Shown: piece by piece, positions 7,300 through 10,895 of the stretch
Layout: every line of letters begins with the position of its first letter
Position numbering within the stretch: position 1 is the first letter of the stretch
From: a candidate division WOR-3 bacterium
GTDB lineage: Bacteria > Hydrothermota > Hydrothermia > LBFQ01
DNA length: 10,895 nucleotides
Assembly: GCA_039802605.1 (NCBI GenBank)
Contig: JBDRWW010000019.1
Span: 1-10,895, forward strand
Reading direction: 5' to 3'
The notes under the pieces: model-generated
The model's input: only the letters and a program-made list of their open reading frames with translations
Told to the model about the DNA's origin: nothing
The model's database searches: none
Position numbers and translations under genes: made by a program

Positions 7300-7769
7300 A
7301 ACTTCAACACGCCAAATTTAAAGAGTAAGAAGACAACGAAGGCTATAAACAAAACAACAAGCAGGACAACAAGCAGGGTTGTATAGGCTTTTACCAAATC
7401 TGTAATCTGTTCAAGGAAGCCTTTTTTGGGTTTCTTTTCCTCCATGATTTCCCTTTTTATCCTTTGGCAACTTTCGGAAGTGGTATAAATATCTTGGAAT
7501 TTCCCGCCTTCAACCGAAAGGTTAGTACGTACCATTTTGTGGTGGTCGGGCTCAACGGTTAAACAGATATAAGGAGCCGTTCTTCGTAAGTCTCGGTATT
7601 CTTTCATTTTATACCAGTTTTGGCCATCCGGTGAATATTCTATGGTGCCGTTTATTTTATAATTTCCGTATTTGTCTCCGAAGATTACTACTATTGAGCG
7701 GGCGGAATGGGGGATTTGTATCTGAGTTTGGAGAGTATCTTTTTTGCCAAAAAATTCTTCTCTTTTCAT
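7296..7769 (-). CDS. Beta-rich protein with a C-terminal TM anchor (157 aa; start re-called to MKREEFF)
   Basis: The ATG at 7769 overlaps the upstream TGA (ATGA). IEYSPDGQNWY beta motif and C-terminal TM helix. Confidence 0.7.
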   Translation of the reverse strand: MKREEFFGKKDTLQTQIQIPHSARSIVVIFGDKYGNYKINGTIEYSPDGQNWYKMKEYRDLRRTAPYICLTVEPDHHKMVRTNLSVEGGKFQDIYTTSESCQRIKREIMEEKKPKKGFLEQITDLVKAYTTLLVVLLVVLFIAFVVFLLFKFGVLKL

Positions 7770-9294: not shown

Positions 9295-9390
9295 ATTTTG
9301 GGGTTGTTTTATTCCATTATTTACCCAGTTTACCCAGTTTTGCCCGTTTTTCCTATTTTCCAGTTTTGCCTATTTTTCCAGTTTTTCCAA
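9295..9390 (-). promoter_or_regulatory. 9-bp tandem repeat array with a -10-like box (promoter candidate B)
   Basis: TTTACCCAG TTTACCCAG TTTTGCCCG TTTTTCCTA TTTTCCAG TTTTGCCTA TTTTTCCAG TTTTTCCAA at 9320-9390. Minus-strand CAAAAT at 9295-9300. Confidence 0.6.
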
Positions 9391-10596
9391 AACTTGGGCT
9401 ACAAACTTCTCACTTATGATGTTTAGCATTTCCGTATAGCACTCCAATCTCGTGCGATTGTTTGGGTTTGGGTCTTTTTCAATCCTTCGAATCAGGTCTA
9501 ACAAAACATCCGATAAACTTTTTTGTTCCCTTAAACATTTGTATAACAACCGCACAAATATGTCTGTGAATGCTAAAATTTTCCCCTTTCGCCATTTTCG
9601 TGATACATATTTCGCAAGCGGTGAAAATATTTTCTTTTCTGTTCCTCTCCCAAATGAACTTATGTATATGTTATACCCAAGTACTAAAATTTCGCCTCTT
9701 ACATTTGTTATTTTCCATTCTCCTCGTTTTCCTTTCCCCGACGATTTCGTATTCCCGCCCAGAATCATATACGATATGAAACTATCCTCATTATGAAAGC
9801 GAGAAATATCCCAATACAACGCTTTTACGCAGTATGCGTATGCTATGTTTGAGTTAAAAAAATCCCCTAATATCCTCCTTTCGGTTTCTGTTAGTCTGTC
9901 AAGTTCTTCTTCCATTTGTTTCTGGATTTGTTTAATCTCTTTGATTATTACCTTTAAGGGTTGTATTAGGTGTGATATACCCAAATTGTCATATTCTCCC
10001 TTCTCTACTTTCTTTATTAACGCTTCCGAAGTTATCGGCACCTGGTGTGGGTAATAAATGGGTAGTATTTGTCGGAGGGTGTTTATAAATGATGTGCGAG
10101 CCTTGATTAATTTTTTGTATTGTGTATATAGCAAACGGGCTTTATGCATATCCGGGTTGAATTTGTGTATTTTTGCGTTATCCTGTCGGCCATACAAGTG
10201 AAGGTAATAAGCGTCAAAATAATCGTCTTTTGTTTTTCGGGTGTGTATGTAGAAGCGTGCAAACTCCCTTCCGTGTACGGTATATACTTCCTTGGCACCC
10301 AGCATAAGGAAAAGAATGCCATACCTGACGGAATAAGTCCCGGTGTTTTCTATTACCACAGTTTTACCTTTTACTATTTGGCCAAGTTGGTGGAGGTGGT
10401 TATCATGGTCGTATCTTTTCGGGGGTTCAAACTTTTGAACGGGTATTTTCTTTTCTTCTCCGGTTTCGGTGATGATTTTGGCGGTTTGGGGAACTTCTAC
10501 TTTTACCCCTTTCTCTATCCATACTTTAAACCCCTCTTCGGGGTCATAAAACACCAATATGCCGTTGCCTATATCACAGCCTATTACCTTTTGCAT
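9370..10596 (-). CDS. IS110-family (bridge) recombinase, divergent (408 aa)
   Basis: RuvC-like DEDD: D8 (IGCDIG), E83 (VIENTG), D125/D128 (KDDYFDA). Coiled coil RTSFINTLR. Tnp domain DISRF...SY...KSSG with candidate catalytic S286. AAGGAGG SD. Confidence 0.88.
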   Translation of the reverse strand: MQKVIGCDIGNGILVFYDPEEGFKVWIEKGVKVEVPQTAKIITETGEEKKIPVQKFEPPKRYDHDNHLHQLGQIVKGKTVVIENTGTYSVRYGILFLMLGAKEVYTVHGREFARFYIHTRKTKDDYFDAYYLHLYGRQDNAKIHKFNPDMHKARLLYTQYKKLIKARTSFINTLRQILPIYYPHQVPITSEALIKKVEKGEYDNLGISHLIQPLKVIIKEIKQIQKQMEEELDRLTETERRILGDFFNSNIAYAYCVKALYWDISRFHNEDSFISYMILGGNTKSSGKGKRGEWKITNVRGEILVLGYNIYISSFGRGTEKKIFSPLAKYVSRKWRKGKILAFTDIFVRLLYKCLREQKSLSDVLLDLIRRIEKDPNPNNRTRLECYTEMLNIISEKFVAQVLEKLEK

Positions 10597-10624
10597 GGTT
10601 CTACCTCCTTTTTGTTTTACCCCT

Positions 10625-10779
10625 ACCCCAGTAGGCGGAAATAGTCTCTTCTCCCTTTCGGGAAATATATATTTCTCCCTACTGGGGTTTTTTAAATAGC
10701 GGTAGGGGAGGTCGGAATAATGTTCAACTCCCCACTTATGTGGGCGGAATTATAGCCTCCTCCCCCGTCCCCTACCGCT
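10625..10779 (-). ncRNA. Bridge-RNA-like ncRNA: two stem-loops, each with a two-sided internal guide loop
   Basis: 12-bp stem 10698-10709/10768-10779 with apical CCCAC/GTGGG. 11-bp stem 10625-10635/10678-10688 with apical CCC-GAAA-GGG on the minus strand. Four GGGAG-N10-TTCC(G/C) units. Lies immediately upstream of the IS110 gene. Confidence 0.82.
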
Positions 10780-10895
10780 TGCATTCTACTCTTGTTTAAA
10801 TAGTTTTTTAAGCCGGATAGTTGGTATGGGTATGCGGGGTGGGTTGTTTTTGGGGTGTGGGTTTTCGGGTGTGTAAAGGATAATCCAGCCATCGG
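10769..10895. repeat. Terminal direct repeat, copy 2
   Basis: Identical to bases 1-127. Confidence 0.97.

Follow-up and report, generated by a model that had tools for sequence, protein, structure and literature searches.

A predicted two-loop bridge RNA of a divergent IS110-type recombinase may direct a 10.8-kb circular element to a single chromosomal site in a candidate division WOR-3 bacterium

Results

A predicted bridge RNA matches one site in the host chromosome

We analyzed a stretch of 10,895 nucleotides from a candidate division WOR-3 bacterium, referred to below as the window. The stem-loop at positions 10698-10779 of the minus strand is, on our reading, probably the target-binding loop of a two-loop bridge RNA, by means of which the IS110-type recombinase P0001 would insert the whole circular element at one site on contig C2 of the host chromosome. 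The evidence comes from the recombinase, the four guide arms of the RNA, their matches in the two replicons and a sister clade of related elements.

The window is a circular contig with about 20 open reading frames

The window is the whole contig C19 of the host MAG (1.65 Mb, 23 contigs). Positions 1-127 are identical to positions 10769-10895, and since such a terminal overlap is the usual mark of a circular assembly, the contig can be taken as a circle with a true length of 10,768 bp. The circle encodes about 20 ORFs, and every long ORF lies on the minus strand. Besides the recombinase gene (P0001, 408 aa, 9370-10596), whose product has a RuvC-like DEDD and a Ser domain, they include a tyrosine integrase ORF (1459-2175; phrog_1 at 6e-18), ORFs annotated as an M78-peptidase-like protein and a terminase/NTPase-like fragment, and a 150-aa ORF of unknown family with a hydrophobic tail (963-1415). 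A tRNA search revealed a complete tRNA-Gln(UUG) at 1423-1496, also on the minus strand. With its 10768 bp and about 20 ORFs, the element is no compact insertion sequence, which would have about 1-1.6 kb and the recombinase and its RNA alone between the ends. A search of the window for half sites flanking the recombinase module found none, and an Rfam scan of the window gave the tRNA alone and two far sub-threshold matches.

The DNA of the 150-aa ORF is 86% identical to positions 40537-40977 of the chromosomal contig C2 and 89% identical to contig C67 of the relative G002; no tRNA adjoins the chromosomal copy. The shared 86%-identical gene ties the element to the host lineage. The tRNA-Gln(UUG) on the element is the only one among the 46 tRNA genes of the 90%-complete MAG, the chromosome having tRNA-Gln(CUG) only, on contig C8. 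Chromosomal tRNA-Gln(UUG) genes are present in eight relatives and are 79-86% identical to the element copy. The circle also contains seven copies of a 9-nt unit, CCAGTTTTN, which resemble iterons or binding sites and lie in two clusters (3885-3928 and 9325-9385), one of them overlapping the 3′ end of the recombinase gene.

P0001 is a very divergent IS110-type recombinase

P0001 matched the Pfam family PF01548 at 1.2e-9 (38.6 bits versus a cut-off of 29); for PF02371, P0001 alone stayed below the Pfam threshold. Among 22 relatives, all matched PF01548 and 17 matched PF02371. In the alignment of these relatives, D8, E83, D125, D128, S286 and G287 were invariant, which is the DEDD plus Ser set of IS110 recombinases. 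A family profile searched against PDB chains matched ISCro4 (3.5e-36) and IS621 (8.5e-35) over both domains. The AlphaFold model had a pLDDT of 90.4, and its top Foldseek matches, 9t56 and 8wt6, are chains of bridge-RNA synaptic complexes (probability 1.00, about 375 aligned columns, 15-17% identity). By way of relatives, profile and fold, P0001 thus shows an N-terminal RuvC-like DEDD domain with four acidic residues and a C-terminal Tnp domain with the catalytic serine. The model also predicts, at high confidence, an extra beta-hairpin inserted into the RuvC-like domain at about residues 20-60, which is common to P0003 and in part to other relatives and is missing from most of the alignment.

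P0001 is nearly an orphan. In 1.84 billion protein representatives, HMMER detected 27 proteins at E ≤ 0.001, of which the best full-length match is 39% identical, and a word-indexed search of 5.8 billion proteins returned the query itself alone. Some IS110-like match (E ≤ 1e-10) was present in 70 of 272 genomes of the phylum, the subfamily of P0001 in G006 and G003 only. No close relatives of P0001 and P0003 were found in the viral or genome contig collections searched.

The leader of the recombinase gene folds into two loops with four equal arms

The 204-nt leader ahead of the recombinase start has a predicted folding energy of -78.6 kcal/mol, compared to -52.1 ± 4.0 kcal/mol for 200 shuffled sequences (z -6.6; 0/200 as good). 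The fold contains two stem-loops, both on the minus strand. Stem-loop 1 (10698-10779) has an outer stem of 12 bp that leads through a large internal loop to an inner hairpin of 5 bp (CCCAC-AUAA-GUGGG); we read it as the target-binding loop from its fold and its arm-for-arm alignment with the target loops of the sister clade described below. Stem-loop 2 (10625-10688) is read as the donor-binding loop from its fold and its GGAG-N10-UUCC frame. A search for the pattern GGAG-N10-TTCC found exactly four arms, two in each loop and all 10 nt long. The arms of loop 1 are GAGGCUAUAA (5′ arm, 10750-10759) and UUGAACAUUA (3′ arm, 10718-10727), at precisely the coordinates given in the original prediction; those of loop 2 are AAAUAUAUAU (5′ arm, 10665-10674) and AAGAGACUAU (3′ arm, 10641-10650). 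A structured non-coding RNA with two internal loops is therefore predicted beside the recombinase gene, and no Rfam model applies to it.

A promoter-like site (TTAAAA, 17 nt, TAGAAT; 9/12 matches, by consensus match only) at 10783-10811 of the minus strand ends 4 nt before the stem of loop 1. The 3′ arm of loop 2 resembles the promoter spacer upstream of the RNA at 10 of 12 positions, which by a rough reckoning we judged to be chance. In the source run, the bridge-RNA region forms a separate 173-nt unitig (10626-10798) with a depth equal to that of its neighbours; this hints at alternative paths, i.e., variants, on both sides. One contig of run X5 skips 10576-10631.

Loop 1 specifies a sequence found once in the host chromosome

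The target string was obtained by joining the 5′ arm of loop 1 with the reverse complement of its 3′ arm. When all six overlaps from 0 to 5 nt were tried, the 3-nt TAA overlap that had been proposed was the sole one that combined agreement of the two arms with a long genomic match; the other five joins gave merely 12-13 contiguous genomic matches. The resulting 17-mer had zero matches in the window at ≤ 3 mismatches, and so had the 14-mer that results from forcing the register of the donor; the half match AGGCTATAA is present at 7340-7348, as described. In the MAG, the 17-mer occurred at one place at ≤ 2 mismatches, C2:203621-203637, where the two mismatches are its two end bases and the inner 15 bases are exact. 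This inner, bracketed 15-mer, AGGCTATAATGTTCA, is present once in the host MAG (C2:203622-203636) and is unique even at one mismatch; positions 2-10 of the 5′ arm equal its left part, and positions 2-10 of the reverse-complemented 3′ arm its right part. The prediction that the loop addresses a target outside the element is thus supported. A reversed control pattern gave no match in the MAG at ≤ 2 mismatches. The forced-register 14-mer has a 1-mismatch match in the MAG, which is at chance level, and was discarded as a target.

With the genome taken without C19, 1951 of 200000 shuffled 17-mers (about 1%) reached 15 contiguous matches. When any of 14 joins was allowed, 4518 of 30000 shuffled arm pairs (15%) reached a 15-mer genomic match, and the weight of the match therefore rests on string and join having been fixed before the search. 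The target string was indeed fixed ahead of any genome search, and the match spans exactly the 15-mer that had been bracketed. As a cross-check, the arms of loop 1 have no match in the element and the arms of loop 2 none in the chromosome, which agrees with the order in IS621, target for the first loop and donor for the second.

The chromosomal site lies within the last 19 codons of an ORF for a 436-aa CitMHS/Na_sulph_symp (CitMHS/DASS) transporter, whose Pfam match extends to residue 431. It is located between convergent genes, just past the stop codon of a GT1 glycosyltransferase gene, and encodes M-N-I-I-A-L of the transporter tail ...GVFMNIIALILNILITYNFAP. A sigma-70 scan of 1300-1700 detected no promoter at the target and one promoter-like site elsewhere (1562-1534, minus strand; shuffle mean 1.2). 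In G002 and G003, the homologous place differs from the 15-mer by one mismatch each, and in G001, G004 and G005 by more.

We also looked for traces of integration. Hybrid junction k-mers with crossover positions 4-9 on both sites were found zero times in the MAG, as were integrated copies or split contigs. Flanks of the chromosomal site were absent from the loose ends listed for the Logan contigs of runs X1, X3, X4 and X5. Contigs drop rare forms, and as these are contig data with a partial listing of loose ends, the absence of junctions means little. The original prediction had offered the host attB or a site in another mobile element. The unique exact 15-mer in the host chromosome speaks for the former; since neither an integrated copy nor a junction was found, we infer the identity of the site as the natural attB from the match, and rate it as somewhat more probable than otherwise.

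Loop 2 specifies a candidate donor site on the element

The joined arms of loop 2 give a 14-mer, AATATATAGTCTCT, which is present once in the window at 749-762 of the plus strand and is unique in the MAG at ≤ 1 mismatch. Positions 2-9 of the 5′ arm equal 749-756, and positions 2-10 of the reverse-complemented 3′ arm equal 754-762. When any of 14 joins was allowed, 1981 of 100000 shuffled arm pairs equalled this match. No intergenic gap of the circle is larger than the one that holds the 14-mer, at a distance of about 740 bp upstream of the RNA gene and on the other strand; the 14-mer is likely the donor (attP-like) site. It does not form a junction directly upstream of the RNA gene that would rebuild a promoter; the promoter-like site at 10783-10811 stands without it.

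When the two sites are aligned on their 5′ arms, TATA falls at identical positions in target and donor. The triplet spanned by both arms is not the same, being TAA in the target and ATA in the donor, and the 3′ arms of loops 1 and 2 are offset by one base, so that only TA (or TATA) is shared. TA is the dinucleotide that lies under both arms in both sites, for which reason we take it as the likely crossover.

Variants of the element are present in three other runs from two other studies. Their contigs align with the window from position 753 onward at about 99%, and in all three runs the 26 bases to the left of 753 are only loosely similar. This break in homology exactly at 753, inside the predicted donor, fits a recombination site, short of proving one. 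The variants keep the recombinase at the same place. In those of X3 and X4, the segment 365-752, with a 117-aa ORF at 345-698, had almost no coverage, and both sides of it are kept. The 20-nt stretch to the right of the donor had no match in the viral or genome contig collections.

TATAAT is the fixed target centre of a sister clade

The sister clade comprises 56 loci (L045-L100) from hot-spring metagenomes. Their recombinases belong to the same subfamily and are 23-36% identical to P0001. The sister leaders contain one stem-loop, whose arms are framed by UCCCGAC / UUCCGACC (UCCCGAC or UGCUUCC after each arm), and these loops align arm for arm with loop 1. In 21 aligned sister loops, which were chosen by a pattern requiring these ends, the 5′ arm ends with ATTA and the 3′ arm with ATAA. 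The latter is preceded by T in at least 90% of them, and the 6-7 bases preceding the constant arm ends vary freely. A motif-blind search for repeated frames detected arm pairs in 19 of 39 distinct leaders; 17 of the 19 had the same ends, the remaining two being starts that had been mis-anchored.

In the sister elements, the variable bases of the 5′ arm correspond to the DNA immediately beyond the conserved left end, TTA-TCTTAY. For a test of this relationship, 29 pattern hits were available, of which at least two are not loops and five lack the end motif, leaving 22 distinct pairs of flank and guide. Eight of these pairs match at six or more of seven variable positions, compared to a mean of 0.77 and a maximum of 6 in 20000 permutations, a figure that overstates independence because the sister loci are related to each other. 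At L085, on a contig of 200 kb, the two arms are matched by the two flanks of a 3.2-kb insertion; at L050, the right flank that closes a tandem pair matches the 3′ arm of the first copy. Some of the flanks that do not match are tandem or donor junctions. Constant arm ends together with variable parts that match the flanks indicate that the sister loop is the target-binding loop, with the arms where the original prediction had placed them in loop 1. Complementarity of the first loop to its target is thus a rule that holds in the sister clade; for loop 1, the unique exact 15-mer would be such a target, in a host MAG in which an occupied site was not found.

As the hexamer is constant in the arms whatever the flanks are, TATAAT is the fixed target centre of the clade and not the signature of a promoter. 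The fixed centre, ATTATA on one strand and TATAAT on the other, probably represents a TA core with fixed neighbours. The sister elements have about 3.2-3.7 kb and one loop whose 5′ arm carries ATTA and whose 3′ arm carries TATAA, whereas in the window and in G003 it is the 5′ arm that has the TATAA-type end and the 3′ arm that has the ATTA-type end. The swapped arm ends agree with the position of the donor on the opposite strand; in terms of the sister-clade polarity, both loops are mirrored. A search of one 3.7-kb sister unit for its own end sequences revealed no second (donor) loop.

Some loci of the sister clade are organized as tandems: L054 (2540-6287) and L050 (3787 and 7466) contain 3,744-bp copies in head-to-tail order, joined to each other end to end at an intact junction. 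In the element of G006 (L004, 2650-2760), which has a single loop, the 3′ arm is antisense to DNA that immediately precedes this loop. The element abuts the start of a divergent gene for a 302-aa protein with TATAAT located 9 nt before the ATG, and has a CCRGTAT direct repeat at both presumed ends. A simple guide model did not fit this single loop.

Discussion

Proposed mechanism and competing explanations

In the mechanism that we propose, the bridge RNA would be made just upstream of the divergent IS110-type recombinase on the 10.77-kb circle. In each loop, the 5′ arm would base-pair to the left of the crossover, with the bottom strand, and the 3′ arm to its right, with the top strand, as in IS621. 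Loop 1 would specify AGGCTA-TA-ATGTTCA, the single chromosomal site, and loop 2 would specify AATATA-TA-GTCTCT at 749-762 of the element. The recombinase would exchange strands at the shared central TA with the RNA bridging both sites, and the entire circle would be inserted. According to a junction worked out by hand, the transporter would then end with ...FMNII and 11 element-encoded residues in place of its last 14, which probably damages its last helix. That integration takes place at all is likewise something we infer.

The match in the chromosome could be fortuitous, in which case the bridge RNA would be real and its target would be located in another strain, another organism or another mobile element of the community. 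We consider this a minor but serious possibility, at roughly a quarter of the weight. About 1% of shuffled 17-mers match equally well, and 15% under free joining; the site is ordinary conserved coding sequence, which relatives carry with one mismatch; no junction was seen, and an insertion there would harm the gene. Against coincidence stand the order of events, since the string was predicted before the search and matched over exactly the bracketed span, and the place of the match. It is exact in the very MAG that carries the element and one base off in G002 and G003, and element and host chromosome share an 86%-identical gene. Slightly less probable, in our view, is that the tyrosine integrase integrates the circle at tRNA-Gln and that the IS110 module is carried along as a passenger or has its role in some other rearrangement, for example the resolution of dimers or an exchange between related elements at 749-762. 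The integrase ORF beside a complete tRNA-Gln(UUG) favours this explanation, and the sharp divergence of the variants at 753 fits recombination between elements there. However, a search of the MAG gave neither a partial tRNA-Gln(UUG) nor an att-like repeat, the module has an intact recombinase with all catalytic residues and two intact loops, and the variants keep the recombinase in place. A 32-nt match of the element tRNA to contig C8, considered as an att site, turned out to be the T-arm of a tRNA-Val. The tyrosine-integrase and bridge-RNA routes are compatible with each other.

Insertion into a promoter, or masking of a promoter by the RNA, had been suggested because the target holds a perfect TATAAT, which would then be a -10 box, and the left end of the G006 element does abut a TATAAT that precedes the start of a divergent gene by 9 nt. 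The only genomic match, however, is located inside the 3′ end of a coding region between convergent genes, where the sigma-70 scan detected no promoter-like -35/-10 pair, and the hexamer is constant, on either strand, in the 21 aligned sister loops and in 17 of the 19 pairs from the motif-blind search. We therefore regard the promoter explanation as improbable. Hardly more credible, and if anything a little less so, is that the hairpins are a plain structured mRNA leader or attenuator of the recombinase gene with no guide role. The lack of an Rfam family match would be in line with such a leader, whereas four equal arms in identical frames, a unique cognate match for each loop in the expected replicon and the covariation of guides and flanks in the sister clade argue against it. 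Insertion of the circle at the C2 site, guided by the bridge RNA, thus remains the reading that we prefer.

Comparison with known systems

Durrant et al. (2024; PMC11208160) describe, in the part of the article available to us, that the first loop of the IS621 RNA reads the target and the second the donor, that the core is CT, and that the joined ends lie directly upstream of the RNA and rebuild its promoter. Like IS621 (structures 8wt6-8wt9), the element described here has two internal loops upstream of a DEDD plus Ser recombinase that matches in profile and fold, and, as far as the available description goes, the 5′ arm is in both cases sense to the left half of the site and the 3′ arm antisense to the right half, both covering the core, here with regard to the candidate target and donor. 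The differences from IS621 begin with the recombinase, for which the fold alignment shows only about 16% identity. In addition, each of the four arms has a regular length of 10 nt and stands in an identical frame, and a 10.8-kb circle that encodes about 20 ORFs is the mobile unit. Compared with the features of IS621 given in that part of the article, the centre is probably TA within a fixed TATAAT and not CT, and the donor lies about 740 bp off on the other strand and is not the promoter of the RNA. The best profile match (3.5e-36) and the best fold match were to ISCro4 (PDB 9t56, by its PDB title a synaptic complex with DBL, TBL, target and donor DNA).

Large cargo-bearing IS110 elements, according to the portion of a preprint available to us, grew from canonical ones and are enriched for resistance genes, and a 9,177-bp circular form of an IS110 element was recovered (Hu et al., bioRxiv 10.64898/2026.08.14.744561). 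With multi-gene IS110 elements including this circle described in that 2026 preprint, size alone is not new. As in the elements reported in that portion, an IS110 recombinase and a bridge RNA here would mobilise a multi-gene, plasmid-like cargo; unlike those, as they are presented there, the circle studied here is phage- or plasmid-like, carries genes for a tyrosine integrase and a tRNA, and has a recombinase from a clade that is much rarer. With tRNA-targeting tyrosine-integrase islands it shares an integrase adjoining a tRNA gene on a small circular element, but the tRNA is full length, and a matching chromosomal att fragment was not found in the MAG.

Implications

The process considered here belongs to the known IS110 kind of bridge-RNA recombination, of which the cargo-bearing circle carries a form that is rare, divergent and unusually regular. 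More tentatively, and with less confidence than in the insertion itself, we suggest that several features come together in one phage- or plasmid-like circle of 10.8 kb: a bridge recombinase serving as integrase, mirrored guides, a palindromic TA core within a clade-wide TATAAT, a guide tuned to a single site of its own host strain at the 3′ end of a transporter gene, and the only assembled tRNA-Gln(UUG) of the host. If the element does hold the host's sole copy of this tRNA, its loss would be costly.

Bridge recombinases are sought as programmable DNA-insertion tools. The clade of P0001 is rare, its detectable members being the 27 proteins found among 1.84 billion representatives, and since its four 10-nt arms stand in identical frames, the rules for reprogramming should be easily read. 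The two sites, one chromosomal and one on the element, provide a concrete natural pair that can be checked. For annotation, the lesson is that TATAAT, when present in a predicted bridge target, can represent the fixed core of the family and need not mark a promoter. The circle adds a case in which a bridge system may act as the integrase of a multi-gene element and not of a minimal insertion sequence.
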